From contig JAAOMT010000762.1 of NCBI GenBank assembly GCA_016748015.1, positions 558,001-622,000 on the forward strand: DNA of 64,000 nucleotides. Direction: 5' to 3'. Made by a program: the position numbers and the translations under genes. Source of the stretch: Geosiphon pyriformis uo1. Taxonomy: Eukaryota > Fungi > Glomeromycota. The notes beneath the pieces are model-generated. The model ran no database searches. It was not told the origin of the DNA and worked only from the letters and a program-made list of their open reading frames with translations. The stretch's first letter is position 1. Each line of letters begins with the position of its first letter. Shown piece after piece: positions 2,481-64,000 of this stretch.

Positions 2481-2633
2481 TAAACTGATAAAAAAAAAGA
2501 TAATTAAAAATGTAGTTGTATATATTTTTGTAATAATAGAATTAAATATGTTAATTAGGAATTTTAATAAATTAGTTTTAAAAATCATCCACTTTGATAA
2601 TTGGCTAGATTAAATTTCTTTGCAAATCCGACC

Positions 2634-8017: not shown

Positions 8018-8329
8018 TTTCTTAAAAATGACCGTACTAAAACCAACACAAGTAGCTAAATTGGCTCCCAGAATATACTGCAATCGGCTTGAACCCCTTT
8101 TTTCAAATATCACTCCTAAATCAAACCCGGGCAATTTTAACGAAATACGTCTATCATACCACCTTAAAGTTAGACTCAGATCATTATCAAAACCTGTATT
8201 ATATACCTCAATGTATTATATTAATACATGATAATAAATTACCAGGAATTGTAAGGCATCAGCAAGTAAGAATTTTATTTTATTTTATTTTGCAGGTTTA
8301 AATTTAAATTAATAATTATTTTAAAAGTA

Positions 8330-19030: not shown

Positions 19031-19577
19031 TAAGATAGTACTAAAAGCTGTATATAAAACATTAGTGACTAGTTAGAACTATACTACAAGATTTAGAACT
19101 AATTATTATTATTAAATACAATCTATGTATAACAATTTAAATTACATAAAATATGTATATAAATACTAAAAATATAAAAGAAGATGTTAAAAATACTTTT
19201 AATATAGATTTTTCAAACAAATTTATAGTTTAAAAACCTACAAAAAGCAATACTTGACACAATAATTAAATATTATATCAAAAAAACAATTTTAATAAAT
19301 ACATAAAATTTTGCAAAAGCTCAATTTTAAAAAAAATATATTATCTAATTAGAAAAACCAATTCAAAAGCTATTAAAAAAATGTGATTAAAATATGATAA
19401 CATAAAAAAAATATGATAATATAATAATACAAAATAATATATAATAACTCAAAATAATATAAAATATTACATAATAACATAAAATAACACAGAATAATTA
19501 GCTATAATATAAGATAACTAATTATAGTATAAAAAAATAAAGCAATAACAAAAATAGCAAGCAATAATTAATAATAA

Positions 19578-27317: not shown

Positions 27318-30061
27318 ATAATAAATAATCAAAAACAATCTTGTAAAACTAGAAAATATGTATAAAAATAAGTAGTTTTAACAAATAAAAAAAAGAAAAA
27401 AAGATAAAAATTCATTTCCTTAAAAACATATCTTAGCTTTAAAACTTGATAAATTTTTTTTATCTTATTTTTTCTATATTTTTATATTCACAATTAAATA
27501 AAATATTGTTTAATTTACTTGTATATAATCTTCAAATTGTGTTGTCAAAATCAAGTTAATTATTTTTTTTATTTTTATTCCAGACCAGATACTATTAGCA
27601 TAAGCAGTTTCAGAATCCTAACAACTTAAACTAATTGTTTTTGATTATAATAATTAACAATACTAATTTTATTTTCTTATTTTCATTTTTTTTGAATTTT
27701 TTTTTTTTTTTTGGTAAAGTAGTTATATTAAAAAATTAACTGTTTGAAAATAGACTTTGTAAAAAAAGAAACTTTTTTTAGGTTTAAATATTAATTTTAT
27801 CTTGTTAGCTTATCAGAAGAACAAAAAAATAACACTAAACTTTAGTAATTGTACTTGACTAGTTCAAAAAAGATAGTTTACATATATTTAACTGTAAACA
27901 GTTAAACCATATTTCTGTATCTTATAACCAAAAAACTCTATAAATAAATTCACATTTATTAAAAACTTTTAGAGACTGATAACCCTGATCTGTTTTTTAT
28001 ATTAAACAAATAAAACTCTTCAAGCTTTTTAACTGAAAATTAGAGCACTAAATATTATTATTATATCTTATTAAAGTTACTTATAATAATAAAACTTTTT
28101 GTATTATTTGTGAAAAGATCTTATTTAATGAATACAACTGAATTAATATGCAATTTAAAAAAGTTACATGTGATTTTATTTGTCAATATATTATCTTTAT
28201 AACCAACTAAGTAAGAGAAAAAACCTTTTTTAATACCATTTATAATAGAATTCTTAATTATATATATTATTATTTATATAATACTAAACAACTATATAAT
28301 ATGACTAAAACAAACATACAAAGTAGAATGGCCAAAAAAATTCGAAATTGAAAAGCACTTTTAAAAGTAATTAAGGAAATTGCTAAGTACAATCTTTTAG
28401 ACTCTTTAAAAAAATTTCAAAATTATTATCAAAAATTTTGTTTATATAAAAAGAACAGAAACAATATCTTGTACAAATTAATACTTATTTATATAAAAAC
28501 TACTTAATTTTTTGTTAATTACAATAGTATTTTAACTATTAATCTTAGTTTAAACCATTAGAAAAAGCAATTTAATTTGGAAATTATTTAGATCTTAAAG
28601 TATAAGATAAAACTCCAAAAATATTAGAAATGCTAATAAATAACTTATATATTTTTATTGATTTTTAACAAGAGCTTAATATTAAATGTTTTTTTAATAA
28701 CAACCAAAAAATTCTATCAAAATAAGCACATATAAATGATGTTAAATTTGATTTTTGATACTCTGAAAATTAAACACTAATATTAGAATCTTTTACTATT
28801 ATCATAATTAATTTAAAAATAGTATTTAAAATACCAATTAGAATTATGTTATAATAACTCCTTAATTTAGTTCAGCCAGAAATAAAATTAATAAAAAAAA
28901 AATTATAAATTCCAAATATACAGAAAATTTTATAATCTTATTATACAATAAATCAGTAATTAAACTAAAAAAAATTGTACAAGCAATTTTCTTACTTTTA
29001 CTTTGAATTGACAAATTAATCACTATTAAAATCTGAAAAAAGCTAAAAAAAACCAAATACAAAACTTAAAGTTTTAGTTTTACAAAAACAGTTATTTTAT
29101 CTGTTAATTATATAGAAATAATACAAAAAAACTTAAAAATAATTTGAATTAATAAAATAATGACAATTTTATTTTTTAAAATATATTTATTTAACACATA
29201 TAAAAAAGCAATAAAAAAAATCTTATATTTAAGCCTTATGCTTTTTTCTATGAACAATTTTTAATTGGTTTTATCAACTTATACATATTATATTATAGCT
29301 ATTTGTAAATAGAAATACTTATTTACAACTTATCTAAAAAAACTATATACTTATCTAAGAATACAGTTTAAAATATTTGAGCATAGATATTATTAATAAA
29401 CATAAACTCAAAAAATCTTTAACTTTTCTCAGTTGGTATTATATTACAAAACTAAATTAATTCTATTAAAGCCAAATATTAAATATTATTAAATAACCAG
29501 TGAAAAGTTAATTAAGCTTAATCTTAGATTACTAGATTCTGTTTAACAAAACAATTAAAAGCACTTATCTTAAAATACTTAGATATTTTTGCCAAAGAAA
29601 ATAAATTTAGTCAAATTAACTTGGTTTATTATCAGTTTTATACAGAAAATACATTATTTATTAAGCAATAAATTTATTAAATATTACTGCCTGAACATAA
29701 TTTTATAAAAAAAAAAGTCGATTAAATGTTAAAAAACAGACTTATACAATCTTTTATAAATTCATAGTTTTTATTTGTTATATTAATACAGCTAAATCTA
29801 AGATAACTTATACTAAGATAATCTATAATTTGTAATAAGTCATGACATTTTAAATCTACTAATTTAGTAGTTAAAAAATTCTTATGTTTATAATTCATAC
29901 CTGTAATATCCAATACATAACTTTTTACTGTTAGTATGAGTTATTTTAAGTGTTAAATTTAGTTTAAATTTTGTTAATTCTGATAAAATTACAGTAAAGC
30001 AAACCAATATTTTTATAACTAAAAATGCTATATGATAATATAACATTACTTATTCAACAGA

Positions 30062-30905
30062 ATAATTATTAATTATGTAAGTAATCAAGTTAGAGTTTTG
30101 AATTATTCTAAGTTTTAAATTATTATTAATTGTGTAAATAATCAAATCGAAATTTTGAATTGTCCTAAGTTTTAAATTATTATTGATTTTGTGAGTAATT
30201 AAGTTATAGTTTCAAATTGTCTCAAGTTTTAAATTATTATCAATTGTATGAGTAATTAAGTTGAAATTTCGAATTGTCCCAAGTTTTAAATTATTATTGA
30301 TTGTATAAGTAATAAAGTTAAAATTTCGAATTGTTTTAAGTTTTAAATTATTACTGACTTTATAAATAATCAAGTCAAAGTTTTAAATTGTTTTAAGTTC
30401 TAAATTATTATTAATTGAATAAATAATCAAGTCAGAGTTTTGAATTATTTCAAGTTTTAAATTATTATTAATCTTGTAAATAATCAAATCAGAGTTTCAA
30501 ATTGTCTTAAGTTCTAAATTATTATCAATTGTATAAATAATTAAGTCAGAGTTTTGAATTGTTTTAAGTTTTAAATTATTACTAATCTTGTAAATAATCA
30601 AGTTATAGTTTCAAATTGTTCCAAGTTTTAAATTATTATCAATTGTATAAATAATCAAGACAGAATTTTGAATTGTTCCAAGTTCTAAATTATCATTAAT
30701 TGTATGAATAATTAAGTTGGAGTTTCAAATTGTTCCAAGTTTTAAATTATTATTAATTATATAAGTAATTAAGTCAAAGTTTTGAATTGTTTCAAGCTTT
30801 AAATTATTATTAATTGTATGAATAATTAAATCAAAGTTTTAAATTGTTTTAAGTTTTAAATTATTATTAATTATATGAATAATCAAGTCGAATTTTTGGA
30901 TTAGT
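30062..30905. repeat. 57-bp minisatellite, ~15 units, in the 5' region of the pogo-like element
   Basis: Unit ~AATAATCAAGTCAGAGTTTTGAATTGTTCCAAGTTTTAAATTATTATTAATTGTATG. The phase shifts 3 nt per 60-nt line. Confidence 0.95.
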
Positions 30906-30957
30906 TCTATCTAATCAAAGTTTTAATTGTACTTTTCTTTTGCTTTTTAATTTCACC

Positions 30958-38131: not shown

Positions 38132-41100
38132 TGTTACAGATTGGAGTAACAAGTTAACAAATAGCAAAAAATACAGAATTGTAGAGTAATAAAATTAATT
38201 AAAGAGGATTCAACTTTAAAAAGTGAATTAAATAAGTATAGATTTAATGTATAAGATTAATTTTATAAAATATTTTAGTTGCTATTTTTTTCAAAGGATA
38301 ATTAGAGAATCTAAAAATAGAAAAATAGTCTATACTGTCAATAAATAATAATACACTGATATAATTCTATGCCTTATATTAGCACTTTTAGAATTTAATA
38401 TCAAGTATTAGATATACTTTTTAGTTATGTTTTATATAATAATTTTCAAATACTATAATTATATAAATTAGAAAAAAAGTAAGTAAATATTAACAAGTAA
38501 TCTTTTATCCCAAGATATTTAAATATTTGAAAGTAAGAAAAGAGAAATAAGCAATATGAAATGAATTAAGATAATAGTTGTTATTTTATTTCTTTTATTT
38601 CTTATATTTGATTATATTTTTTTATATTTAAAAGACTTATTGCTTATATAGCTATTAAAAGTAATGTTACTCATAAAATATAGGAAGTATATTAGCATAT
38701 AAATTAGCCAATTATAGGTAGACATAGTAAATATGGAATTCCAGGATTCCTTTCAGAAGAATTGCAGGATTCCAGAAATTACAGGATTCTCACATAATAA
38801 ATTGCAAGATTCCAGAATTCCAGGATTCCTCTCAAAGGAATTGCAGAATTTCAGAAATTTTAGGATTCCTGACATAAAGAATTAAGGAATTGAGGAATCT
38901 CAAATACGTATATATAGCAGTAGTATCAGAAGTTAGAAAATTAGTCAATGAAACTTAGAGTTAATTGATTCACAGAGTCAATTAGACTCATAGAATCAAT
39001 TAGACTCGCAAAATCATAATTATTAAAATTAAAAAAAAAAGAGAATCAACACAAAGAATCCTTAACTTAGTTACCACAATTCTCAAATAAATAATTATTT
39101 ATTATATCCAATTTATTTTTACTATCAACATTTTATGTTGATAGTAACTGATACTTAACCATACTAAAACAATAGCTCTTGATCATGGCTATTGATGGAA
39201 TACTAACTTGCAAATTGTCTTGACTTATTTCTTATTTTCTCTTTATCTTTTCTTTATTTTCTTTATTGTCTACTAACTTGATTAAAGGATTTACTCTTGG
39301 AGGACTTACAGCGAAATAAAACTTACTTAAAACAATACTTACTCTTGGAAAACTTATGGAGAAATAAACTTGCTTAAACAATACTTACTCTTGGAGGACT
39401 TATGGAGGAACTGATATCAAGAAACAGCACTAGTATACACTTACAGAAGATATCATATTAGGAGAATCATCAACCATCAAGTTGAGCAAGCCATCAACAA
39501 AACTATGGTTTTAGGAAACTACTGATAAACTGTTACCATTGAATCTTTGTCTATTATACAAAGAACTCAATTGGAAAACCTTCAGATAAAATATCTTCAG
39601 ATTATTATCGTCACCAATCACCTTGAGCACCAAGTTAAGGTTTGTTATTCACTCAACACCTCAAAGAATCACCTATAACAGTGGTTAATGACCAGATTAA
39701 TAACTAGATCAATAATCAAATTAACAGTTAAATTATTAATTAGCTCAATAATTTTCAACTGTAATATTATTTTTTTAAAAAAAATTAAGCTTTAGTAAAA
39801 TCAAGCTATTTATGAAATAATCTTATTAAAAAATTTTGTTTAATTTAAAACTAACTAGTTTAGTAAAGTTTTTTGTAAATAAGGTATATAATACTTGGAA
39901 TAAAATAAGTTTTGTATTCAAGAAACCAAATCTTTGTATAAGAGTTTTGGCTCTTTTGGCAATGGTCAAAATTCTTAGAACATTTAAATATATAATGTCC
40001 AAAATTTTTACTTGTATCTTTAAAGTTGTTTTTTTTATGAGTTTTATGTTTTTTATGATTTTACCAAGATAACCATAGAGTTTTAATTGTCTTTTATATG
40101 ACAAATTTTTTGTCTATAGGTAAAATTTTTTTAATTATTTTTTTAATTATAATAAAAAATAATAGTATGCTTGCTGTTATGCTTTTAAGTATATATTTAT
40201 TCATTTTACTACCAATTTTTTTTCTTCTAATAGTAGTTTTTTTTGGTTTAATAACAGTATTTGTTCTATTGTCATTAGTTATAGTAGTCTGTTTTCTAAT
40301 AATTAAAGTAGTGTTTAAATAATTTTTGATCCAATACTTATAGAAAATATAGAAAGTGTTTTGAATGTTTTAATTCAGAAAATAATTGTTCATATTAATT
40401 GAAGATATTTCTGTTTTAAAAATAGTGTATTTATTTATATCTGATTTTTGCTAATTAATTAAGTTGGTATTATTATAACAGATAATTAATTAGATTATTT
40501 GTAATATTTTTTGAATCATATATTATAAACAAGACAATTATTAAAAATTGTTTCATATTGATCTTATAAGATATAAAAAATATTGTTTAAAACTTTGTTA
40601 ATTAAAAAAAATTTTTTCATTGGCTAAAAAATTTATTATCATAGATATTATCTTTATTTAAATAGTATTCTAAATTACCAATATTTAAAAACAATATTTT
40701 ATAAGTTTTTTTCTTTTTAAGTTTCTCTTAGAACTGTTTTATCTTTTCAAAAACAATTATCTGTGCTTCTATTAATAAATTAAAAATAATATCAAGTCTT
40801 CTTTGCAAAATGTCTTTATAATTTCCTATTGTAATTTTTTTAAATTGTATTGTCTTAATATTAATTTTTATTAATAGTATTATTATTTATTCATAGAACA
40901 AATAAAAAAATTTATAACTTGTTATATTATAATTTACAGTTTTATAAACAAACAAAGCTGAAAACAGTATTTTGTTCCATAAGTTTGTTTTTTTATTGGT
41001 TTTGGCTAAGGTTTTATATAATGTTTTATTAAAATGTTCTATTAAGCCATTTGTTTGAGAATGATAAAAAAAAAAGTTTGTAATGTATTCCCATTTTTCT

Positions 41101-43887
41101 ACAAAGTTTTTTAACCAAAGTACTGAAAAAAGCTCTTTTTTTGTCAGATAAAAATTCTTTGAGACAGCCATGACAACAAATTATATTTTCATAAATAAAA
41201 TTGGCAATGAAGACTGCTGTTTAGTCTGAAGTGGCTCTTGCTTCTACCCACTTTATAAGATAGTTGGTAATTGTGATAATATATTTATTACCATCAAAAG
41301 TTATTATTAAAAGTCCAACAACATCTATGCCAATTCTGTTAAATGGTTAACCAATAGAGATTAAATGAATATCTTTTTTGTGATTAGGTTTTTTTTTTTT
41401 TTGGTAGATGTCACAGGTTTTGATGTATTCAGCAATATTTTTTCCAATGTAAGCTAATAATAATGAGCTAAAATTTTCTGTATTGTTTTTGTTTTTTCAA
41501 AGTGTTTAGCTAATGAATTAGTATGCATATTATAGATTATAATTTCTTTTTCTTCAAATCTGATAACTTTTTGGGAGTGGTTAGGATCTTTTCTGTTTCT
41601 TTTATATAATTAGTTCTGGTAAATCAAATAGAAATTTGATTGTTTGCACAATTGTTTTTTTTGCTGTTAAGTATATTCTGGTAGGTATTGTCTTTTATCC
41701 AAAAATTCTATTAATATAGAGTAGTTGTTCAAGTTTATTATTGTGTTTGTTTATGAAAATATTATTAATAATTAAGTTGGTTTAGTTGAAAAGTTGTATT
41801 ATTACTAGATGGTAAGTCTAGAAAAAGCATTGGCATTTTGATAATTAGCTCTTTTATGATGTTGAATATTATAGTCAAATTTATCCAAATAGAGTATTTA
41901 GCGAGTTATCTGTTTATGTTCTAACTTTTTTTTGTTGTATAGCCAAACTAAGACTTAATAATCTGTTACTATTAGGAATTCCACACCAAAAAAATATTAA
42001 TCCCAATAACTAATAGCTCAAAGTACTGCTAAGCATTCTTGTTTAATAACTAAATAGTTCTTTTCTGCTAGTATGAAAGTTTTACTAACATATACTATAA
42101 TATGTTCTTTACCAACTTTATCTTTCTGTAAGAAAATAGCACCAAGTTCATAGCCAGATACATTAGTGTGCAGGATAAAAGATTGGTCCAGATCAAGTTG
42201 TTTAAGGATTGGTTCAGTAACAAGTTTTTTTTTCAGAATTTCAAAAGCTTTTTGTTAATAAGTGTCCTAGTAATAATTAATATTTTTTCTGAGTAGCTAA
42301 TTAAGAGAAAAAATGATTTTGGAAAAATTCTTAATAAATTTGTGATAATAAAAAGCCAAACCAAAAAAAGAGCATAGTTTAAGAACATTCTTTGGTTGTC
42401 TAATGTTTTGGATTTTTTCAACTTTAACTGAATCAAAAAAGATTCTATCTTTTGTAATAAGATGACCAAGAAACTGGGTGGATTATCGTTCAAAGAAAGA
42501 TTTAATTGGGTTTATCTTAAAGCCAGCATTTTTTAGGAGGTCAAAAACTTTTTGTAAATGTTTTAGATATTTATCTCAAGTTTTTGAATATACTATTATG
42601 TCGTTTAAATAGACCAGAACAAAGTTTTTTTTTACTGATTCAAATACTTTGTCCATTAGGCATTAAAAGATAGAAAAAATATTAGTAAGACCAAAAGACA
42701 TAATTGTGAATTCATAGATGCTATACTTGGTAGTAAAGACAGTTTTTTTTTTGCTTTCTGAATCCATTTTTATTTGCCAAAATCCAGCAGTTAAATCAAT
42801 AGTTGAGAAGAAAGCAGCACTATTAAATTTGTCTAGCATTATATTAATCTTGGAAAGTAGATACATGTCTCTTATAGTGATGGCATTTAATTGGTAATAA
42901 TTAACACAAAAGTGTAGGGTTCTATTTTTCTTGAATATTATTACAACTGGAAAAGCTCATTCACTCTTGGTTTCTTGTATAAATTTAAGATTTTTCATTC
43001 AGATTATTTCTTTTTTGATAAACTTATTATTGTGTTAATTGGATTAATAAGGCTTCAAATTAATTAGGCAAGTTTTTCTGGTGGTAATAGTATGTTGTAT
43101 CACATAGTTTTGTCTAAGAATATTATCTTTTTTTGAGATAACTGGACTATTTCTAGTCAACAGATTTTTAATATCTATTTTTTTTCTTCTTAAGAGGGTT
43201 TTCTTTGTTCTATTACAAGTAATTGAATCTTAGATAATTCATTTTCAAAGAACTTTTATACTTCTCTTAGTTTTTCTCTTAGTATTAGACTAATGGGTTT
43301 TCAATTTTTGTAGTAGATTAGGCAGGATTTGCATTTATCACTAGAAGAATACAAGGGTTTATCACACCAGCACCAGACACAAAGGCCATATTACTAATAA
43401 CTGTATTTTGTTTTCTTGTTAGGTTTTCTATCAAAGGTTTTTTTAAAGATATTATAGTAGGACCAACAAATTAGCTTGCTATTTACAATGATTCTTTTTT
43501 TGTCAACTTTAATATTGTCTAATAGCTTGTTATTGCTAGTAAAGATAATATAAGTAAGTTTAGCAGTTTTTTTTTGTTCTTCTTGATTTTCTTTTTTATT
43601 GCTCTTTTTATTATCTGATTCATATAATTGCTTATCTTTTTGATTCTGGTTTGGTACTGGAAAAGTTGTCCAATAATGACACTTAACCATAATGGGCTTC
43701 TCACTACATCTAATAATTAGCTCACAAAGTTTATAGTCAAGTAGTGCTTTGGCTTTCTTGAACCATTTATAGCCAACAATGATAGTGTATTTTTTTGCTT
43801 TAAATACTTTTATATCAGTTTTAATGTTAATACAATTGATACAAACAGAAACAGCTTTGGCTATATTCAGACCTTTTTTTTTGTCAC
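38132..43887 (-). mobile_element. Second family-A element (A'): 3' LTR 38132-39766 split by a solo D LTR, ORF3, integrase, RNase H, RT, Cys-rich domain, protease cut at 43887 by element D
   Basis: Reverse complement is colinear with 22500-27317. ORFs 42663-42866 (FSTIDLTAGFWQI...SFGLTN), 40887-41171 (SQTNGLIEHFNKTL) and 43394-43927. Confidence 0.92.
38665..39680 (+). repeat. Solo LTR of family D (1016 bp, TGTTAC...ATAACA) with a 9-bp GAATTCCAG array (38735-38900) and a ~46-bp triplet repeat (39290-39410)
   Basis: TG...CA ends, flanks GTAA/GTGG as a decayed TSD. Homologous to the reverse of 43888-44074 plus 53948-54654. Confidence 0.88.
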
Positions 43888-45093
43888 TGTTATAGTTGAT
43901 TATTTGGGGTCTCAAATCAAATAACAAACCAGTAATTTGGTGCTAATTTGCTTGATAACATTGGTAATATCTGTAGATTATATGTATCTGAAGGTTTTTG
44001 GATAAAGTTTTTTGTATAATAAACAAAGATTCAAGTGTGTTTTTTTTTAATGATGTTTCTGTGTCAACCTTCAGTATTACCAGACAAAATTAAAGATATT
44101 GCTTAACATGAAATTACCCTTATAATTTTTATCATTAATTAGCATTTCAAATTATTACTTATTACATTTAGCAAAATACCTGAAATTATCATTTAATTAA
44201 TAACCCAATTTGTACATAACACAAATGTAAACTAATTGTGATGATCAATCATACAATACCCCAAACTATGTAACATTCAAGAGCTCACTGAAATTTGTAG
44301 AAATTCACTGAAATAATTGATAGTTCACTGAAATATTTAATAGTTCACAGAAATAATTTGTAGTTTACCAAAATGTATCTTTAGTGCAGCGAAATTGTAG
44401 AAATAAGCAAAGTTCAAGTTCATAGAATAGTGTTACGACAAGTTGTATAAAAGAAGAGCTTCTTTTTTCAAGAAAATGTATCTTACTTCAGATTTAACAA
44501 TTAGAATTATTCTTTACACACAAAAACAAAATAAATATCAAATAATTTGAAAAATCAAATCCTTAATTATTTTCTTTTTGAAATTAACCAATTCCTACTA
44601 AACAGTTTTGAAATTGATTAGCTATCAATTTCAATAAACTGTTAGTGACTTCAGGCCTGGATAGAAAATGTTTTTTTTAACAGAATTCTATTTCTTTTAC
44701 ATTTTTTTTATTTTCTTTCTTTTATTTTCTTATTATAATCATTAGGGTAGCCTACAGACGAGATTCCTGTAAAAAAGTTGACTTTCACAGCAAAGTAACT
44801 ACACATTTTTAGTGAGCTTCCAGATGAGCAATTCCTAGGAAAGAGTTGATGTTTACTACAACATAACTACACAAAGCAACTGGCACAGGATTGGCCATTC
44901 TACTTATAAGCCCAGCAGTTCAAATTATAAGAAATAATTTGAAAATAAATTCAGTTATCGGAGGTTCAAACACTTCTCATAGTTGTGAATTAACAGTATT
45001 ACAACAAACATACAAGAGCTAAGAAGAGACCAAAAACCTCTGGTAACATTTGGTGCTCTTCCATGGAAATAACACAGCAACAACAAATTCAAA

Positions 45094-47500
45094 GTGGCAA
45101 CCACACCAGACACAGCAACTCTAAAGTATTACCAGTCAATTTACACACACTGCAAGCAAAGATTCAACATTCCAGACGGAATTAAAGTTGTCAAGAAATC
45201 AGTATACCAATACATTGAAAACTACATCAACAATTATCTTTTTAGAAACTACAACATTTCAAAAGTTAGAAGCAACCTCTACAATAATTTAGTGCACTAT
45301 TTACAATTGGGAACAGAAGACCTGAACAGTGAAACACTTGCTACCTACTTTCAAGAACTTAATTTTAACATTATTGAGTATTGTGAAGAAAAATACCCAG
45401 TACAGTCTAAATACTCTTTTGACTTTGAATCAGAGACAAAAACAAGCAACAAAGACAAACCAAAATTGTAGCAATACTCAAAAACCACTCCAAATACTCC
45501 AATACTACCAAAAACAACTGCCAAACACTTACAAACACCTAAACAAGGAACCAGTTCAAAACTTCTACTCACTATTACACCTTTTCTAGCTTTACTTGCA
45601 CAAGCAGAAACTCTTAATTTATCTTTAAATCGATTTTCAAGACTAGAAGATTATACATTACTCAGAAGTCCCACCAGGCAACAAGAAACTCTTTAGACTA
45701 GTACTAATCTTCTTGACTATTTAGCAGAAAATACAAGCGAACACTCTGAAACATTAGCCAACAAAGAAAACGTTTCTGAATCCATTAAAGAAGAAGTAGA
45801 ATCTGAAAAAGAAAGTGAATTAATAGATAACAAGAAAGAAGACAAAATGACAGCTTATATTGCAAAAATTCCCGAATTTAATGGAGAAGATATTGAGACC
45901 AGTCCTCAAGAATGGCTTGACCAAGTTACTAAAGCTGGAGATGCAAATGGATGGAATGCTGCCAGAATGTTAAGAACAATTCCCTACTTTCTCAAAAGAA
46001 CAGCAGGCAAATGGTTCGAAAACTTGATCACCCCTTTTAATGACTGGACAGCTTTCAAAACTGCCTTCTTAGAACAATTCACTGATAACAGCACCTCCAT
46101 TACTCTTCAAAATTGTTTTCACAATATCAAACAAGAACCCTCCGAATCTGTCATGACTTATATTGGGAAATTCAACAAGCTTTTCAGACAAATTTGCCAA
46201 CTTGAAACTAATGATTATTATTTCGATGCTCAAATCTTGGATCAATTTATCACTGGTCTAAAGGATAAACTGATTAAAAAAGTTCACCCACATGCCCTAG
46301 AAAATTTAAACTCTGCCATACAGTATGCAAAGAGATACGAAATGGTCATAAAAGAGGCCAATCGCACAAAACTTGTAAACTTAGCCATTGAAGAAACCAG
46401 CTTAGCAGCTGAGGAGAAAATTGACCAACTCATAAAGAAAGTCGAAAACTATTTCACCAACCAACAACAACAGCAACCCCAAAGATATCAACCACCCCAA
46501 AGACAAAATCAAAATACTTTCACATTACCCTCTAATAACCAGTCTCAGAATTACCATTACTGTAAAATTTCTGGCCACTGGAAAAGAGATTGCAGAAAGT
46601 TACAATGAGACCAACAAAATAGAAGTAATCAACGTTACTCTCCACTACAGCAATCTTATTATCAACCACCACCACCAGCTTACTATCTACCAGACCCCAA
46701 TACCAAAATAACTATTATCAGCTCATCTCACAGCCAATCTAACAGCAATACCAACAATTACCCACACTATATTATCAAGTACCTGCTCAAAGATTGATTA
46801 CACAAAATCAATTCACACCACAAAACTGATACCAAGTAAACAACAATAGAATCAGTTCGAACAACCAATTGGTTCTCCAAAATTCCACTCAACCAAAACC
46901 CAACCACTATCACACTCAACCCAGTTATTTAACAATGCCAGAAGAACAGGATTTTTACCATACTGCACTTTCGAAAGGTAGAGCTGCAGCATAACAACAA
47001 AATCTTTCTCATAACCACACCACTATTCTATCAGCCAGAATTGCTGAAAATGCCAATCTCTCTGATATCTTTCCTTTCGAGTTTGAAGCCAATGAGTCAC
47101 CATTCCTGCTCAGCAATGCAGTTACCAATGAACAAAAAGCAATCACTGCTATGTACACTGAAGCAGAAGTCGAAGGAAAGACAATTTGCTTGATCCTAGA
47201 CAGTGGATCTGCCGGAAGCATCATCATCTACCAGTTGATGCAACAGTTAAAGAGAAATGTTGACCAACCAGCTCAGACAATAATTGTCATTGCTGATGAC
47301 ATAAAAAAGACTTCCATAGGAGAAATTGACAATTTTCCATTCACTCTTGATGGAATCACCATTCCAGTCAAAGTTCTTGTAATGAACATGCCCTAGTATC
47401 AAGCCTTTGTCGGAAATGATTGGCTCCAAAAAGCCAATGCAAAATTAGACTGAGAAACCCAAGAATTACAACTCTTCTATTAAAGACAACATCACCGAGT
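45094..47500 (+). pseudogene. Element C gag (N-terminal extension, capsid, decayed CCHC knuckle, Q/P/Y-rich linker) and aspartic protease
   Basis: IPEFNGED..PQEWL..ANGW, IKQEPSESVMTY, YHYCKISGHWKRDC, LILDSGSAGS. Scattered stop codons attributable to transitions. Confidence 0.9.
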
Positions 47501-48479
47501 ACCCACTACTTGTGGTATATTCAACAAACAATCAGAGAAAGCCCCTGTCTTCGAATTTGAAGAGGAGAAAGAAAAGCCTATAGTCAAAACATTTATGGCC
47601 CTTGAATCAACATCTAACTGGGCTGAAGAAACTGAGCAAATGTATTTTGCAACAAAATCATATTTAGAGAAACCAGAAACCCCTGAATAGAACATTCATA
47701 TTCTAAACCAGAACCAAAAAAATGACACTCTTATATTTCACTCAAATGCAAAAACTGTCACAAGAAACTCTCCTCAATGGGAGCCTGCATTTCACCTGAA
47801 GAAGAATATAAAAATCATACTTGTTATTACTGCAAAGCTTGCCACAGAGAATGATGGGGCCATCTAATAAAAAGAAGTGGAAAATGGGACAACACCTCTT
47901 GTTTGACTTGTGAAAATGCACTACCAAAAGAATGCAATTGAATTGATGTAGCAATGAGAGGAGGAGTCTGTGATCAAACCTGTCAATATGTTTTATCAAT
48001 TTCAGAGAAAGTCAAAAAAGGAACCCCTTTTGATGTTGCTTATAACAGCACCCTCAACAAACTGTACCATTACCTTCATGATGCCAAAATGATTTTCGAT
48101 CTAACAGTGGCTTTAATCAACGGAGCCACTCAAGAAAATGTTCGTCAAATGAAAGAATCAGAATACATTGCATACACTTTTGAAATCGCTGGATACAACT
48201 ACAAAGATGAAGTAAAAGTATATTACCAAATTGCCAGTCACATTTACTCGACCAAAGAAGCTCAAGCTCAATGGCTAGAGCAAATGAACATTAAATTGTG
48301 TAAAGAATGCATAATGCCTTGTGATGAGCAATGGTGCCCTGAATGCTATGCTCTTAGCATTTCTCTGCCTAGTGAAAATGATGAAAACAAAATTGAATTT
48401 AGAGAACCTGAGACAACAAAAAAAATTAAAGCAACACCCATCTATTTCATCAAAAATCAGCCTGCCTTACAACTCAAAT

Positions 48480-48890
48480 ACTTCAACAACAACGGACAAA
48501 GAATAAAACCTGAAAAAGCACATGAAATTAATGCCGGATATGACCTAAGATATTCAGACAAGAATACTCTTGTTCTCAAACCCAAATTTCTCACAAAAGT
48601 CAATCTCAAAATTGCCCTCGAAATTCTGCCAGAAGCAATGGTTCAAATCGCCTCCCAGTCTTCTCTGGTAAGCAAAAGAATCAATGTTAGAGTAGGAATA
48701 ATTGATGCTGGATATACTGGTGACATAACAATAATACTCCAAAATGAAACCAATAAACCTTTCAAAATTGAACATGCTGAAAAAATTGCTCAAGCCATCT
48801 ATTTAACATTTCAGGTTTACAATTAATCAATCAAAGAAAACAATTGGAAAAAAGTGAAAGAGGAACCCAAGGTTTTGGTTCAACTGGACA
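48480..48890 (+). pseudogene. Trimeric dUTPase domain within element C pol
   Basis: All five motifs present: AGYDL, IASQSSL (IA.RS.L), GIIDAGYTGDI, EKIAQ, ERGTQGFGSTG. Confidence 0.93.
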
Positions 48891-49319
48891 ATTCACAGTT
48901 CCAGTAAACATAGCTCTTAATGAACAAAGTGAATTTCACCAAATTCTATGACTTCCACAACCAATTACTATTTCACTCTTTGGAGAACACCCTAAAATTT
49001 ACACTTGTGAAAAGCCAATGACCACACAACAAATTTTTGAGTCCAATGAATGAATCTGCTTGGAACATAATATCTCGATCCCAAATATTTACATCCCAGA
49101 AGGAACAAAGAAAGTCTGAGTTACTTTTTACAACCCCAATAATTACCCCATAGTTTTACTAAATAACTTAGAAATTGGAGTTATTTACAGTAATATCTTT
49201 CAACAAGAATTACCCCAAACAGTCCCCAATTTTTCTGAAATTATTGGACATTCACTACCAAAAATCAACCCAAATCTCAGCTCTGAAAACTACCATGTTG
49301 TCATGGAAAAACTATCTCA

Positions 49320-50730
49320 AATCAATATGGGACAACTTAAATCACAACAACAGAGCCAGCTCAAAGAGCTAATTGCAGAATTTGCCGATATTTTTGCCAA
49401 AAACAACAATAACTTAGGAAGAACTGATTTGGTTCAACATCAAATTTACACAGGAGATGCCAAACCAAAATGACAGCAAGCCTACCGAGTTGCTCCAGAA
49501 AGTTACCAATTTATCTGCAAAGAAGTACAACAGATGCTCAACAATGGGCTTATTCAACCATCAATGAGTCCATAGGTCTCACTTATAGTCTTAGTTAAAA
49601 AGAAAAATGGAAAAATACAATTTTGTGTTGATTATCGACAACTCAACAGTGTCACCATTGGAGATGTCTACCCTTTTCCCCAAATTGATGATATGCTAGA
49701 TGCTCTTGGGAAGTCCAAATACTTTTCGACATTAGATTTAGAGAGTGGATACTAGTAAGTTGCCATGGATCCCAAAGATTGTCCCAAAACAGCATTCACC
49801 ACTCAAGGAGAAAATTATGAGTTCAATGTAATGCCTTTTGGATTATGCAATACACCAGCAACATTCCAAAAACTCATGGATGTTGTTTACAAAGGCCTCC
49901 TTTGGAAGTCAGTAGTCGTTTATCTTGACAATACTGATGTTTATTCTCCATTATTCGAATTACACTTAAAACACCTGCAAGAAGTTTTTCAATGATTATG
50001 AAAAGCAGGACTGAAACTCAACATTGAAAAATGCTACTTTGGAAAAACAAGCTTGGCCTTCCTTGGTTATATTATTAGTAAAGATGGAATCAAACCAGAC
50101 TCTAGAAAAATCAGCACTGTTAAAAACTTCAAAACTCCTCAAAACACTACAGAACTAAGAGGATTTATAGGGTTAGCTTCTTACTATTGGAAGTTTATCA
50201 AAGGATTCTCAGAAATTGCAAAACCTCTCAACCAGCTTATTACCAAAAACGTCAAATACAAATGGACTGCTGAACACCAAAACACATTTGAAATCCTCAA
50301 AGAAAAACTAACAACAGCTCTAATTCTCGCCTATCCAGATTTCAGCAACCAATTACAGTTAGCAACAGATGCCTCTTATACCACCTTTAATACCATTCTA
50401 TCACAGTTAAATGACAATGAAAATGAGCAAATAATTGCTTATGCTAGCAGAACATTGAAACCAGCTGAAAAGAACTATCCTGCAACAGAATTAGAAACTG
50501 CAGCAGTAATCTGGGCCCTACATCATTTCAACCTTTATCTCAGACCCAAAGAATTCGATATTATCACTGATAATATTGGACTTAAATGGCTTCAGAACAA
50601 AAACACTTAGCTAAATACAAAACAAATCTGATGGACAGAATTTTTAGCCAACTACCAATATATTGTACACCACAAATCAGGAAAACTCTATACCAATGTT
50701 GATTGTTTCTCAAGAATAAGGCAAGATTAG
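49320..50730 (+). pseudogene. Element C reverse transcriptase and RNase H
   Basis: FCVDYRQLN, FSTLDLESGY, MPFGLCNTPATFQ, VYLDN (YLDD), LATDAS, AYASRTL..AEKNY...ELE. Ends NVDCFSRIRQD* at 50730. Confidence 0.95.
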
Positions 50731-50776
50731 AATAGAAAACCAACACCCATTTAAATTAACAACAAAACAACAAACA

Positions 50777-52162
50777 ATAAACCCCAAAAACTACAACAAT
50801 CTTAAACAATATTTGGAGACATTAACAATTCCAACAGATTGGTCCTCAGATAAAAAACATCCGTTACTACAATAAGCCAAACAATACTTCTTATACAACA
50901 ACATGATTTATTATCAAAACTTCAAAAACCCAGACAATCCACTCAGATTAATACAAGAACATGAAAAAGAAACTATTTTATATAACATGCACTCAGACCT
51001 TTTATCAGCACACCTAGGAAAAGACAGCACCACCCAGAAAACACTAGAATATTACTTTTGGCCTCAAATGAGAAAAGATATTCATGAATACATTAAGTCT
51101 TGTAATAGTTGTCAAAGAAGAGAAGGAACTCACTCTACAGAACCTTTAAACCCAATCAAAGTTGGACAGCCTTTTGACTGAGTTCGTATTGATTTAATCA
51201 GACCACTACCTATCACAAACCAAGAAAACCATTATATTGCAGTAGCTGTAGACTATCTCACCAAATGGCCTAAAGCCAGAGCCATTCAACAAGCAGATAC
51301 AAAATCAGTAGCAAACTTTATCTACGAAAACATTATTTGTAAACATGGATGCCCAATAGAACTTTTATCTGATCAAGGAACACATTTCGTGAACAATTTA
51401 ATCCAGAAAATTTGTGGATGATTTAATGTCAAAAGACTATTATCTTCACCCTACCATCCACAAACAAATAGACTTGTAGAACATTTCAACAGAATATTGT
51501 GTGAATCATTAGCCAAAGTCTCAACCAATTTTGAGCAAGAATAGAATTTCTTTATTCCATCAGTATTACTAGCATATAGAACACTAAAACAAGATACCAC
51601 AAAACACATACCATTTGATTTAACCTATGGAAAGACAGCAATATTACTAATTAGTTTTATAATGGAAACATACACAGTACAACCAATTAATAAAGACAAC
51701 TTTCAAGAAACACTACAATGAAAAGCCTACACTCTACTTAGCACATTGGAAGAAAAACAACAAATAGCAGCCACCCATATTAAACACTTTCAAGCTCAAC
51801 AAAAAGAATAGCATGACAACAAATTGCCTTCAGTTACCAATGAATTTAAAATCAGAAACAAAGTTCTCTTACACAGAACTAAAGCTAAAAAACAATGAAG
51901 TGGAAAATTTGAAAATAAATGGGATGGACCATTCTTTATCCATGAAGTCCTAGACAACAGATCATACAAACTAAGACTTGATGACAAAATCCTAGCAAAA
52001 GTTGCACATGGAGATCATTTGAAACACTATAATTCCAGACACAATCCTGAACCATTAATTCCACAAATTGGTACACATTCCTCTTTAATCAATTCTGAAG
52101 ATATTCCCCGAAATTTAGAACCAATAGTTGTCATTGAACAACCTCTCAACTTGAACACTTAA
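50777..52162 (+). pseudogene. Element C integrase in a separate reading frame (HHCC, DDE core, GPF/SH3-like tail, no chromodomain)
   Basis: MHSDLLSAHLG...SCNSCQ, IDLIRPL, AVDYLTKWP, LSDQGTHF, YHPQTNRLVE, KWDGPF. Frame is +1 relative to RT; start codon ATA inferred from ATG. Confidence 0.9.
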
Positions 52163-52285
52163 TTTAAATTTATTATTATAGTTATCTCCTTATAATTTAG
52201 AAACAATCTCACAAAAACAAAGCAAAAATAACATAAAAACCCATTCACCAAAAATAATTTTCTGTTATTTTTCAAATCTTTTATA

Positions 52286-53005
52286 ATAACTATTCCTCAA
52301 AACATTCAACAATTATCCCAAAAACTAATGTTAATTTTAAAAACAATACCTGAATTATTCATTACTATTACTGGAAACCACATTAATTATACCCAAACAG
52401 AAGTAGTTACAAATTTAGCCCCAAATTCACAAAAATATCACCCATATAAGAAAAACACAAGAAGTTATTCTGGAATTCACCTGCCAGAACTTTTAAAGCT
52501 TGTTTTAAGAGAAAACTTAATGCTCACTCTTATTAGTATTCCACAAAATGCTACTATTCAACAAAAACTTCAACTGTGTCTTAATGAAGAAAACTACAAC
52601 TATACTCTAATATATAGATATTTTTACATTGGAAAAACACTTCACAAATGAAAACGGGAGCTTACAGCAGCAAACCTCACAAAAGAAGCTATTTGGAAAC
52701 AACTCCACAATAAATTCAAGACAACAGCTGGACCTACAAACAGTCATTATAAACTAAGAGCTGCTCTTAGACTTTATGACCTATTCCACACCTGTGAAAA
52801 CGTCTTACAAAACCCAATTTTACAGCCTTTAAAGATTCAATATATTGGAAAGCTCACAGAACTGAAATTTCAACAATTTTCAGACCAAATTTTTTCAATA
52901 ATTTTGGATTATTATCTGGAAATTACAGACAGTACTTGGACTTCGATAGAGCTCAATCTTGAGGAGGAGATTATGTTACCAGATAAAATTAGAGATATTG
53001 CTTAG
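52286..53005 (+). pseudogene. Element C ORF3, ~240 aa protein of unknown function overlapping the PPT and 3' LTR
   Basis: One frame with a single TGA (52649, CGA-derived). Continues KRELTAAN...LRAALRLYDLF...YIGKLTELKFQQF...LNLEEEIMLPDKIRDIA*. Start codon inferred from ATA. Confidence 0.75.
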
Positions 53006-56000
53006 CATGAAATTACTCTTATAATTTTTATCATTAATTAGCATTTCAAATTATCACTTATTATATTTAGCAAAATACCTGAAATTATTATTTAATTTAT
53101 AACCCAATTTGTACATAACACAAATGTAACCTAATTGCAATAATCAATTATGCAATACCCCAAACTATGTAACATTTAAGAGCTTGCCAAAATTTGTAAA
53201 AATTTGCCGAAATAATTGATAGTTTACTGAAATATTTAATAGTTTGCAGAAATAACTTGTAGTTCGCCAAAATGTATCTTTAGTGCAGCAAAATTGTAGA
53301 AAAGAGCAAAGTTCAAGTTCATAGAATAGTGTTACAACAAGTTGTATAAAAGAAGAGCTTCTCTTTTTAAGAAAATGTATCTTACTTCAGATTTAACAAT
53401 TAGAATTATTCTTTACACACAAAAACAAAATAAATATCAAATAATTCGAAAAATCAAATCCTTAATTATTTCCTTTTTGAAATTAACCAATTCTTACTAA
53501 ACAGTTTTGAAATTGATTAGCTACCAATTTCAATAAACTGTTAGTGACTCCAGGCCTGGATAGAAAATGTTTTTTTTGACAGAATTCTATTTCTTTTACA
53601 TTTCTTTTATTGTCTTTCTTTTATTTTCTTATTATAATCATTAGGGTAGCCTATAGACAAGATTTCTGTAGAAGAGTTGACTTTCACAGCAAAGTAACTA
53701 CACATTTTTAGTGAGCTTCTAGACGAGCAATTCCTAGAAAAGAGTTGACGTTTACTACAACATAACTACACAAAGCAACTGGCATGGGATTGGCCATTCT
53801 ACTTATAAGCCCAGCGGTTCAAATTATAAGAAATAATTTGAAAATAAATTCAGTTATTGGTGATTCAAACACTTCCCATAGTTGTGAATTAACAGCATTA
53901 CAACAAACATACAAGAACTAAGAAGAGACCAAAAACCTCCGGTAATATCGGGTTAATATAGTTTGTTGTCTATCACTTCTCAGAATTATAATTCTGTCAA
54001 TTTTTTTCTCAATGTGGTGGCTGGCAATCTTCTGGTAAGCTATCCTCAAATTGAGTGTCTATCCTTATCCCTAGGTCTTTTACCAGTGCTATATCCTGAC
54101 ATCAATAATTCAATACTTAATTTTTAATTAATTAGTATACAATGATAAAAGAAAAAATAAAAGAAAAAAAAGTTAACAAAGAAAAATAAGCCAAGACAAT
54201 TAAGTTAGTATCTTGTCAATAGCCATGATCAAGAATTATTGTTTTAGTGTGGTCAAGTATGTGTTATTATTAACATAAAGTATTAATAGTAGAAAATGAA
54301 TTAAGATAGCAAATAGTTATTTATTGATATTTGTGATTTGGAAGATTGTTTTAAATAAAATCTAAACTGAGAGATCTGTTTTTTCTGCTTCTAATACTAC
54401 TGCTATATATATATATTTGAGATTTCTCAATTCTTTCATTCTTTCTGCCAAGAATTTTAGAATTCCTGGAATTTTGCAATTTCTTGAGAAGAATTCTACA
54501 ATTCTGTAATTCTGTAATTCCTTGTATAAGAATTTTGTAATTTCTGGAATTCTGTAATTTCTCTGAGAAGAATCCTGAAATTCCATATTTTACTACATTT
54601 TACTTCTGATTGACTAATATATACTACTATGATTCTTATCTTTTATGAGTAATATTATTCTCTCTTTTTAATATTGAGCTCCATTGAGATCTCTGAACTC
54701 TCTTAATTCTTTTTTCTTGATTATTTTTTGCACTTTTTTTTCAAGAATTACTTGTGTTATTTTGGTCTGTAATTTTTTAAATTGGACATTGGTCATTTTA
54801 CCCATTTGATTCATAGTAACTGTATCCATTATTGTGTTAAGTAGTATTTCTGGTCAGTCTTAAAATCCAGCATGTAATCAATAGATGATTCTTACTTGTG
54901 TTGTTAGATTGTTTTTTTCCACAAATTGCTCAAGTTATTGCAGTATTGTTGTATCGAATAATTGTTTTGTTTTATCTGTATATAAGTTCTGAATATTCAA
55001 ATATTGTTCCAAATAGAAATAACAAAAGTTTCTTGGAAATTGTTGTATCCATCAATTCCCATGTTTCTATCATCAATTCTTGATATGATATATCTTCTGT
55101 TTGTATTTTTATTGTCTTTTTTACTTTTGTTATTATCTTGTCAATGATGTTTTCTGGTTTTTTTTGTTCTTTATGTTGAAGTCTCTTTTTTGTATTTTTA
55201 TATTGAATAGTTTGTTAGTTAATGATAATTTTCATATTCTGTTGTTAAATCAGTTGGAATAGTTGTTGTACCAATGTGTATATCTTGTTAGTAATTTCCA
55301 TTTTTTTGGTATCTTTTGTCATATATACTGTGTCTTTATATATTCTTTTGGTTGTTTAATTTGATGTGTTTGGTTCAATAATTATTATTGGTTCCAGATC
55401 TTATAGAATTTTATTTGGTTGAACTAGTATTTATTGTACTTCCAGTTGTGAAAAATTATTGATGGATAATAATACTATATGATAATATGGTTTCAGTTAA
55501 TTACCATGTGCTGCTTTGGCTAAAATTTTGTTGTTCCATCTTAATTTATATGTTCTATTTCCAAGAATTTCTTCTATGTAAAATGGTCTGTCTTATTTGG
55601 GATTAAATTTTTCATTTTATTGTTTTTCCACTTTGGTACAATATAAAAGTACTTTGTTTCTAATTCTGAATTTAATTGGTTTATCTGGTAGTTGGTTATT
55701 ATGTCTTTCTTTTTGTTTTTCTTGTGACTTTTAAATATTATTAGCTGCTCTTTACCATTTGTTTTCTAGTGTTTCTATTAAGTCATATGTTTTTCTTAAT
55801 AATGTTTTTTGTAAATTGTCTTCTGTTATTGGTTCAGTTAGATACGTATTGACTTCTATTTCAACTGGTAAGATTATTGTTCTATCATATACTAATTCAA
55901 ATAGTATTGCTTGTGTAGTATCTTGTTTCATTGTTCGATAAGCAAATAATACTAATAATATAAACAAATCCTATTCATCTTAATTTTTTTGACTAATTTT

Positions 56001-61670: not shown

Positions 61671-64000
61671 AAAGTGATGCTTATTTTTTTGGTTTTTTGT
61701 ATAAATTCAAGATTTTAATGAATTTATTATTACAGTGATTGAATTAATAAGACTTTAGATAAATGGAACAAGTTTTTTGGCAGTAATAATGTGTTTTTTT
61801 AGATAATTAAACTATTTCTAGCCAGCAGATTTTTAATGTCAATTTTTTTTTCTTCTAAGAAGAATTTTCTTTGTTTTACTATTAATAATTGTATCTCTGA
61901 TGATTTACTTTCAAAAAACTTTTGTACTTTTTTTATTTCTTTTTAAGATATCAAGCTGATTGGTTTTTAATCTTTGTAATAGATTAGACAAGACATGTAT
62001 TTATTACTGAGAAAATACAATAGTTTATTGTATTAACACTTAATACAAAAACCATGTTATCAATAATTGTATTTGGCTTTCTTGTTAGGCTTTTTATTAA
62101 AGATTTTTTTAAGAATATTATAGTAGAGCCAGCAAATTAGCTTGTTATTTACAATAATCTTTTTTTTGTTAGCTTTAATATTGTTTAATGGCTTTCTATT
62201 GTTGATAAAAATAGTGTACATAAGTTTAGCAGATTTTTTTGGTTTTTTTTGTTTTTTATTACTCTTTTTATTATTTGATTTATATGATTGTTTTTTTTTT
62301 AGTTTTGTTTGAGTACTAAAAAAGTTGTTTAATAACAATACTTAACCACAATAGATTTTTTATTACATTTGATAGTTAATTTACACAGCTTATAATCAAG
62401 TAAGATTTTGGTTTTCTTAAGCCATTTATTGTCAATAATTATAGTATACTCTTTAACTTTAAATACTTTCATGTCAGTTTTAATGCTAATACCATTAATG
62501 TAAACAAAAACAGCTTTGGATATGTTCAGATCTTTTTTTTGTCATTATATATATTGGTTATTAGTCAAGTAAAAAGTTTATTAATTTTTCTGTCAATTGC
62601 TTCAAAAGAGTGTTTGGCAATAATACTAACAGATAATCTACTGTTTAGAATTAAATTAATAAAATAACCAGCTACTTGGGCTTTGCAAATTAAAAAAATA
62701 ACATTATTATTGTTAACAAATTTAGCTTGACAAAAACACTTATTGGTTTTTGGTGTTTTTTTCTTTAAGATTAATAATTTGTGAAGATTTTTTCTAAATT
62801 ATAGATAAATCATTAACTGGCCAAAAATAATGTGAACTGGAGTTTCTATAAGATTTTTGATAACAAAATAGAATTCAAATTTTTGTACAATTTCTGGGAA
62901 TTTCAACTTTGAAAAATTCTTAAAAACTTTGGTTTTTGATAGTTTATTGTTATTAACAATAAAAGTTGAGACTTTATTGAAATTTAAAATGAAATCAATC
63001 TTGGTTTTCTTTTTTTTTCTTGTAAATTCAGAGGGGTTAATGGCTAATTTATTTATGTTATGCTTATTATTAATTAGATTAAAAGCATAAAAGAAGTTTT
63101 TTTCTGATTGGCTTGTATTTTTACTTTTTGAAGATATACTTATCAGTTTAAAGACTAATAAACAATAGCTTCAACTAAGAGATTTTTTTTAAAAAAATTG
63201 ATATTGGCTTAATTAGATCTTTAATTAGGAGTATTATTATTATTAAATCTGTTGTTTTGATTATTATTGTTTTTAGAAATTAAAGAAGACAATAAAAGAT
63301 TGTTATAGTCTTTTGAAAAATGTCCAGTTAGTCCATAACAATAGTATACAAGTAGATTACAATTTTGCTGTCTTTGATATAATGATTGCTAAAACTAATT
63401 AAAGTGTAATTCAAATTTGGATCTTTGTTGTTGTTGGTTATCTCTAACTGCTTGTGTCAAAAACTCTAATAATTAGACAAAATTAGCTATAAGTCTATTT
63501 ATTAATTGTTTTTTATTTTTTATGCAAGCTCAATAATCATATCTATTATAGAATTATTTTTTAGAACCAAAAGAGGCCAAAGAACATAAAATAATTCAGT
63601 TCTTAATTCTTTTATAAAAGAGTCAATCTTTTGTTTTTTAATTTAGTTTCTTTTAAATTTGTTTTTAAATTAAATAGTAAAGGAAGTGTTTTTTTTTCTA
63701 GTATTTGTTAATATTCATTTAATAATTTTTTAGTAAGCACCAATATTAGTTTCTTGTAAGAATTATGTGGCAAAAAAATCTTAAAGATAGCCACCAACAA
63801 TTTGGAATTTGTAATCAACATTATATTGGTTGGCTGTAACTGCTTTTTCAAAGTTATCTAACTATTTAATTGGATTTTGAACATTATTTCTAAATAATAA
63901 TAATAGAGTATTGTTTTTTCACTCTAAAGCAATTTGTATATCTTAAAAAGCAGCTAAAATGTTTGCTTGTATAAAGTCAACAGCCATTGGTTCAAAGGTA
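61671..64000 (-). mobile_element. Third family-A copy (gag, protease, Cys-rich domain, RT start) joined to element D gag without an LTR; runs off the window
   Basis: Reverse complement is colinear with ~20810-23430. It duplicates 42950-43887, so it is a distinct copy from A'. Confidence 0.85.

Follow-up and report, generated by a model that had tools for sequence, protein, structure and literature searches.

Whether the transposon copies of an early-diverging fungus are eroded by a C>T mutator that reaches beyond CpG dinucleotides is the question raised by a stretch of 64,000 nucleotides of Geosiphon pyriformis uo1 (GenBank assembly GCA_016748015.1, contig JAAOMT010000762.1, positions 558,001 to 622,000 of the forward strand; hereafter the window). 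The interval 44075-53947 proved to be a Ty3/Gypsy element of full length, bounded by two 974-bp long terminal repeats (LTRs) and with remnants of gag, protease, dUTPase, RNase H and integrase inside. An earlier note, made from the letters alone, had claimed for this interval a hypermutation of the RIP-like (repeat-induced point mutation) or all-context methylation type, confined to repeats and not limited to CpG. One-way erosion of C:G to T:A was observed in the repeated DNA, on both strands and separately in each inserted copy. By the sequence comparisons described here, a real, broad-context and apparently repeat-restricted C>T mutator acts in this Glomeromycotina fungus; its action includes the known CpG hypermutation of fungal transposons and goes beyond it. 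The note's placing of the DNA in an early-diverging fungus agreed with the gag relatives and with a gene match to Ambispora gerdemannii, both of which point to Glomeromycotina.

Transitions in the LTR pair and in the gag and pol copies

The two LTRs (44075-45048 and 52974-53947) were compared without gaps, C or G being taken as the ancestral state. They were found to differ at 64 of 974 positions, by 59 transitions and 5 transversions (transition/transversion ratio, ts/tv, about 12), and no indels between them were found by BLAST, so that the approximate counts given earlier proved to be exact. The transitions comprised 24 at CpG, 16 at CpA, 10 at CpT and 8 at CpC, followed by one of unresolved context. 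Per available C-copy, the rates were 24/68 (35%) at CpG, 16/222 (7%) at CpA, 8/88 (9%) at CpC and 10/212 (5%) at CpT, and 34 of the 59 transitions were thus non-CpG, at rates of 5-9%. The earlier estimate of a third or more at CpG, with many at CpA, CpT or CpC, was borne out, and the outcome in which nearly all changes trace to CpG was not what was found, since most changes do not. Some of the CpA calls may be CpG sites whose G was lost in both copies, which is impossible for CpC and CpT, and at these last two 18 of 148 sites differed against 5 transversions in 970 positions (Fisher p=1e-12). The top trinucleotide was TCG (11/14). Both C>T and G>A changes were present in each LTR (17+14 and 18+10), and the LTRs were therefore mutated after insertion and on both strands. 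The Kimura two-parameter (K2P) distance was 0.070, falling to 0.043 without the CpG changes and to 0.005 by transversions alone; LTR dating overestimates the age, as had been expected, and CpG-adjusted Kimura ages leave the bias uncorrected. In a qualitative comparison, contigs of run X1 aligned to the first LTR carried transitions at 118 places and transversions at 14 (40 of 149 variant rows listed, with summed depths that are not allele frequencies).

The gag frame of the element gave 393 matches, and among the best 120 of these one was the window's own protein and 119 were named proteins of Geosiphon pyriformis. The 119 proteins were aligned with the window frame over columns 50-303, gaps and poorly matching segments being masked, and the 85 copies that matched seven diagnostic columns were taken as the main set. 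Amino acid changes that fix the context were scored, namely P>S and G>E via CpC, M>I and H>Y via CpA, and R>K via CpT; trinucleotide contexts from the window codons were dropped because the window copy is unlike the family majority at many columns. In the main set, context-fixed non-CpG C>T/G>A changes were found at 287 of 3636 site-copies (7.9%). The classes were P>S 76/746, G>E/D/K 90/629, M>I 53/353, H>Y 8/216, C>Y 2/97, R>K 29/437 and T>I 29/1158. Reverse transitions were found at 12/15343 (0.08%) and transversions at 33/31447 (0.10%), two columns holding 18 of the latter, and the K, N, I, F and Y residues, whose first and second codon positions are A/T only, were changed in 26 of 5155. 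Over all 119 copies, 369 non-CpG changes in 4588 (8.0%) stood against 43 reverse changes in 14096 (0.31%). The two sets of figures therefore place the non-CpG excess at 26 to 100 fold over the reverse direction. The 34 copies outside the main set contained 9.0% non-CpG changes and 1.9% apparent reverse changes. Of the 69 reverse events, 68 were confined to 10 of the 63 columns, chiefly five in which K/R, N/D or N/S are nearly balanced; the probable reason is that subfamilies differ, or that a G>A change has become the majority state. Arg-CGN codons were kept in 224 of 552 cases (59% lost), or about 0.45 hits per C, which makes CpG roughly 5-6 fold faster than the other contexts. The gag proteins are annotated, stop-free and top-ranked, and heavily hit copies are therefore under-sampled.

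In pol, the five copies of the window were found to contain 78 changes of C>T/G>A type, 1 of reverse type and 11 others, at columns at least 85% conserved across 60 outside relatives. The strong C>T/G>A process beyond CpG that had been claimed was thus met in the LTR pair and in the gag and pol spectra. G. pyriformis was absent from the results of the pol protein search, in which named copies from arbuscular mycorrhizal fungi (AMF) were too scarce for a cross-species control, and a metagenome scan for the locus found no relative. The 119 gag proteins (hits P0122-P0240) stand in the public G. pyriformis annotation as 'hypothetical proteins' and are mutated gag copies of one family; such copies annotated as proteins would inflate gene and orphan counts.

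The order of the context rates was found to be CpG >> (T/C)pC-H > (A/G)pC-H, H being A, C or T. The 3′ base was without significant effect among A, C and T (p=0.31 in the LTR pair, 0.14 in the pooled older pairs, 0.11-0.73 over five tests), and no CpA preference was found in these comparisons. A 5′ T raised the rate in the LTR pair (18/85 vs 14/172, p=0.005) and in the pooled older pairs (387/552 vs 562/1103, p=8e-14), and the non-CpG rate was 2-3 fold higher after T or C in three of four pairs. The gag classes with a 5′ pyrimidine were changed in 214/2165 (9.9%) and those with a 5′ purine in 98/2948 (3.3%), the classes having been picked after the data were seen and one CpG-like column dropped. 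T and C were also raised at the -2 and +2 positions of the old pairs, so that part of the 5′ effect may be a pyrimidine-tract or conditioning effect. CHG and CHH sites were equally changed in the old pairs (152/270 and 697/1228); in the LTR pair they were changed in 2/44 and 29/210, respectively.

The derived states were uncorrelated between gag copies (3993 pairs, mean n*r2 1.06). Strand asymmetry and clustering per copy, the tests that the earlier note had proposed, gave no strand bias per gag copy beyond chance (chi2 47.9 on 84 degrees of freedom) and an unclustered, near-Poisson mutation load (dispersion 1.43), clock-like rather than burst in appearance. The C>T and G>A loads of the copies increased jointly (rho 0.48), and neither LTR contained strand runs beyond chance expectation. 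For each transversion there were about 26 non-CpG C>T changes in the young LTR pair (a ratio resting on 5 transversions), some 41 in the older pairs and some 75 in gag; the ratio is steady across ages, and the process therefore keeps pace with age. The rate per transversion was no lower in copies 70-80% identical, the compared copies not necessarily being the closest partners in the genome. The pattern looks like steady erosion and not one burst, though many weak bursts would give the same picture.

Composition of genes and repeats, and layout of the window

The two host genes lie in an island (2339-8265) that holds 167 of the 263 CpGs of the window, in agreement with the earlier remark that the genes at 2.6-8 kb keep CpG. 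Run X1 had a flat, single-copy depth between about 2450 and 8270, flanked on either side by repeated DNA. The introns were defined by RNA contigs of runs X2 and X3. The nine introns contained 25.8% GC (95% confidence interval 22-30%) with an observed/expected (o/e) CpG ratio of 0.81, followed by 28-41% GC at the fourfold sites of the two genes and 29-33% GC in the flanks. The CpG o/e ratio was 0-0.21 in the repeats (0-0.12 in old repeats) and 0.67-1.57 in gene introns and flanks, upstream and intergenic DNA beside the genes also keeping CpG. GC and CpG were found to drop within about 100-200 bp of the start of repeated DNA as placed by read depth. Because introns and fourfold sites keep CpG whereas old repeats are at 14-17% GC, the process looks repeat-restricted, and the restriction claimed earlier is in this sense borne out by composition. 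The evidence that genes, introns and promoters are spared is strong but indirect, consisting of base composition in two genes, to which selection or biased gene conversion may contribute. The pattern is unlikely to be an artefact of sequencing, since a contig of run X1 (which may be the source of the window) is identical over 2043-8549.

The gene at 3.9-8.1 kb found its nearest match in a ubiquitin hydrolase of Ambispora gerdemannii (71%). It and the PNO1-like gene converge at 3672-3990, and one RNA contig each in runs X2 and X3 covers both genes across the intron 3914-3987; overlapping 3′ ends are possible, the contig by itself not showing an overlap.

The older repeats were less extreme than had been described. 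The older copy of the young element's family (14601-19054) contained T/A at about half of the C/G positions of the young copy, and old repeats at 14-17% GC are A/T-rich but not the near-pure A/T of the earlier description. The statement that the polypurine tract had become poly-A was overstated, GAGGAGGAGA reading AAGAAGAAAA in the older copy. The change of TGG to TAA was present at 8 of 25 aligned TGG; the others were TAG (9), TGA (3), TCA (1) or unchanged (4). At 14601-16470 two old LTRs, 77% identical, stand head to head, an LTR with a primer-binding-site remnant on the plus strand directly preceding the inverted LTR with its 3′ internal region, an arrangement that is either an inversion or a nested insertion on the opposite strand. 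The 57-bp array followed the pattern of the gag and pol copies: in its units 1-14, 21 columns were C/T-only or G/A-only, 29 A/T columns and 1 G column were invariant, and 6 were otherwise changed. A more diverged repeat pair, presumably LINE-derived though without a Pfam match, showed a ts/tv of only 1.6 at 64% identity.

Features of the window (64,000 nucleotides) with their positions and strands
Feature	Position	Strand	Remarks
Single-copy island	2339..8265	.	PNO1-like gene (+, 2634-3672) and DOA4/UBP-like gene (-); RNA contigs show splicing; CpG o/e ~1
Older copy of the young element's family	14601..19054	.	LTR on +, after which come, on -, an inverted LTR and the 3′ internal part
Second Ty3/Gypsy family, copy B1	20810..26607	+	~79% identity to B2 and B3; same mutation spectrum
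57-bp tandem array	30061..30909	.	~15 units; 81% matched
Second Ty3/Gypsy family, copy B2	39753..43887	-	RVT_1 match
Likely 4-bp target-site duplication, TCAG	44071..44074	+	right copy TCGG at 53948-53951; one G>A at CpG separates the copies
5′ LTR of the young element	44075..45048	+	31/59 transitions (17 C>T, 14 G>A); begins TA vs TG in 3′ LTR
gag frame	45697..46608	+	Retrotrans_gag; Ty3_capsid under cut-off; query that gave the 119 genomic copies
pol region	46995..52160	+	interrupted by numerous stops; aspartyl protease, dUTPase, RNase H-like domain of reverse transcriptase (RT), integrase zinc-binding domain
Polypurine tract GAGGAGGAGA	52961..52970	+	AAGAAGAAAA in older copy of family
3′ LTR of the young element	52974..53947	+	28/59 transitions (18 C>T, 10 G>A); terminates TA vs CA in 5′ LTR
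Second Ty3/Gypsy family, copy B3	61785..63995	-

No alignment across the insertion junction, as an empty site of the young element would give, was found within the window. Between its integrase and its 3′ LTR a further long frame (52232-53005; 139 + 117 amino acids with one TGA between) was found, without a Pfam match, which is possibly a third open reading frame (ORF). A dUTPase domain is present in two distinct Ty3/Gypsy elements (48500-48810 and 58524-59012), that of the young element lying between protease and RT. Within the LTR, a 20-bp tandem repeat (44285-44365) is rich in CpG-derived differences, and at one CG of it the two LTRs have CA and TA, respectively, so that a second, non-CpG hit is required. 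A run X3 contig aligns with the LTR at 44822-44966 and departs from it at 14 letters, A>G or T>C accounting for 8; it is probably RNA, being spliced elsewhere, and perhaps a transcribed, less mutated member of the family.

Cause of the erosion

We lean, with somewhat better than even confidence, towards continuous methyltransferase-linked deamination of methylated repeats, with CG well above CH, as the cause. Methyltransferases would mark the cytosines of silenced repeats and continuous deamination would then turn C to T. The fast CpG class would arise from CG methylation by DNMT1/DNMT5-type enzymes and the broad class from weaker non-CG methylation by a DIM-2-type enzyme. The mutation would take place during vegetative nuclear divisions and not in rare premeiotic bursts and, at the weakest step of the account, the excess would need enzyme-assisted deamination or missing T:G repair beyond plain chemistry. 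The effect of the erosion is that stops and missense changes kill the ORFs and that old repeats sink to 14-17% GC, and it would thus probably be a methylation-linked genome defence of RIP-like kind. The excess of CpG over CH, the absence of bursts and the sharp repeat boundary together fit mutation that follows cytosine methylation. The AMF clade is reported to keep DNMT1, DNMT2, DNMT5, DIM-2 and RID (PMC8298701). In Rhizophagus irregularis 32.5-49.5% of cytosine was reported as methylated by LC-MS, mass spectrometry coupled to liquid chromatography (PMC8298701), and methylated CG sites as 13.8% of cytosines (PMC8647823), a gap from which non-CG methylation may be inferred there. Transposable elements (TEs) of Phycomyces are reported with CG and CHH methylation (PMC11258239), and in repeats of Zymoseptoria tritici Dim2 is reported to drive mitotic C>T change (PMC8016269).

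Several points weigh against this account. The sparing of genes is read from composition only, and the 4 single-copy exon differences in run X3 (3 transitions, 1 transversion), being unpolarised, make too small a sample. The 5′ pyrimidine preference was missing in one of the four pairs (43/68 vs 55/94, p=0.63), and two ApC-context gag columns, changed at 24-25%, were exceptions to it. The LC-MS figure comes from another genus (R. irregularis; PMC8298701). The Phycomyces TEs are described without CHG enrichment (PMC11258239), while in the old pairs of the window CHG is mutated as CHH is. The sole demonstrated mitotic Dim2 mutator is reported as >98% CpA with CpG spared (PMC8016269), unlike the spectrum of the window. 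Many weak rounds of RIP would likewise average out the strand bias.

True RIP, that is a RID-type enzyme with homology recognition in a cryptic sexual or parasexual stage, acting in many weak broad-context rounds beside ordinary CpG decay, is considered unlikely. The size of the excess is RIP-like (a ts/tv of about 12 between the LTRs, and non-CpG C>T changes 26-100 fold above the reverse), Ty3/Gypsy copies, other dispersed repeat pairs and the tandem array were all mutated, RID is reported for the AMF clade (PMC8298701), and contexts are reported to differ among fungi (PMC4352252). Against it, CpA preference is absent (3′ base A/C/T, p=0.14-0.31), the copies lack strand bias and carry a near-Poisson load, and the ratio to transversions is not lower in copies 70-80% identical. 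The usual RIP index thresholds, at their commonly quoted values, were passed by only 3 of 127 index windows, and the family is still very high in copy number, 9868 contigs matching one LTR. A genome-wide GC-to-AT bias with CpG decay, G+C being held in the genes by selection or biased gene conversion, was given little probability. It would suit an AT-rich genome with introns of 26% GC, transitions make up three of the four exon differences of run X3, and the single-copy evidence is of composition. But the measured repeat rates lead to an equilibrium of about 1% GC (about 4% by the figures from all 119 copies) against 26% in introns and 28-41% at fourfold sites, values that correspond to no more than 2.3-2.9 C>T per T>C. 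When a CpG-only hypermutability of 10-100 fold was simulated from an intron-like composition, GC levelled off at 23-28% whereas old repeats reach 14-17%, and the repeat boundary is marked, to within about 100-200 bp, by a fall in GC and CpG.

The highest non-CpG rate after a 5′ T, in the LTR pair (p=0.005) and the pooled older pairs (p=8e-14), and the gag classes chosen post hoc (214/2165 vs 98/2948) would also suit a cytidine deaminase of AID/APOBEC type with a TpC preference, aimed at repeat chromatin or editing the complementary DNA (cDNA) of the element. This is held to be less probable again than a genome-wide bias: the preference is just 2-3 fold with CpG dominant, strand-coordinated runs are absent, and no -2 preference was found within TC. 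Editing of cDNA would make the LTRs alike and hit one strand, whereas the LTRs differ and both strands were hit. On the same two observations, mutation during reverse transcription was rejected, a dUTPase-related route included. Ultraviolet (UV) damage at dipyrimidines, heightened by methylation and unrepaired in silent chromatin, would share the 5′ pyrimidine preference, and the organism lives at the soil surface. It is very improbable, since no tandem CC>TT excess was found in gag (P>F 3 and G>K 12, where independent hits would give about 14), ApC and GpC sites in the old pairs still differ at about half, and CpG is kept in the upstream and intergenic DNA beside the genes. Apart from methylation-linked deamination, a broader proposal can be made tentatively and with some doubt: Geosiphon may have a dedicated, meiosis-independent repeat mutator, based on a methyltransferase or a deaminase, with YpC (Y being T or C) and CpG preference, which would be an early-branching form of RIP common to other non-Dikarya fungi and missed by CpA-based screens.

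Known systems and significance

Canonical RIP makes many mutations per event and is often strand-biased. The window shares with the RID-dependent RIP of Neurospora and other Pezizomycotina the one-way change of C:G to T:A in varied repeats on both strands (PMC4352252, PMC12543289, PMC13297926), followed by a very high ts/tv, the destruction of ORFs and the apparent sparing of genes by composition. It differs in lacking CpA preference and strand-biased bursts, in leaving the standard indices nearly silent and in a host outside Dikarya. The outcome is RIP-like but CpA bias and bursts were not found, and it is therefore not filed as RIP; of the two origins offered by the earlier note, RIP or all-context methylation, canonical RIP fits the worse. 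The Dim2 mutation of Z. tritici (Moller et al. 2021, PMC8016269) is likewise repeat-focused, gradual and on both strands, and is reported there as >95% C>T, mitotic and tied to the methyltransferase; unlike it (>98% CpA, CpG spared), CpG is fastest in the window and CpA, CpC and CpT are about equal.

As in CpG hypermutation of fungal transposons, CpG was nearly gone from the repeats and kept in the genes, with TCG at the top in the LTR pair; unlike it, the excess was not confined to CpG, 34 of the 59 LTR transitions lying outside and the non-CpG rate being tens of times the background. Clutterbuck's work of 2017 is said to describe this type of hypermutation. At CpG and TpCpG it is described for Basidiomycota and 'some lower fungi' by Amselem et al. 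(2015). RIP has been proposed from dinucleotide indices in Entomophthorales, in Zoophthora radicans (PMC10515909), which is alike in the claim of a RIP-like change outside Dikarya, in a Ty3-inflated genome. The G. pyriformis genome is reported as 41.2% LTR (PMC11952901). The two cases differ in phylum and in evidence, indices there and polarised spectra here, where indices hardly register.

The 1,239-genome screen of Badet and Croll describes RIP-like signatures only in ascomycetes, with 'no_rip' entered for 7/7 Glomeromycetes and 3/3 Endogonomycetes, Geosiphon not being among the genomes; RIP signatures in Gigaspora margarita are cited as reported absent (PMC8647823). Reviews that bear on whether the signature is known or new are PMC13297926, PMC7862722, PMC13443276 and PMC12344493. 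No report of the signature for Geosiphon was found in the literature searched, which did not extend to subscription papers such as the one on the Geosiphon genome, nor to the texts of Venice 2020, Bewick 2019 or Clutterbuck 2017.

Many 'hypothetical proteins' of G. pyriformis are mutated transposon copies, and CpA-based indices have a blind spot by which this signature is missed. Repeat-directed C>T mutation has been held to be largely an ascomycete trait, and a strong case of broad context in Glomeromycotina bears on the time at which mutagenic genome defence originated and on its need for sex.

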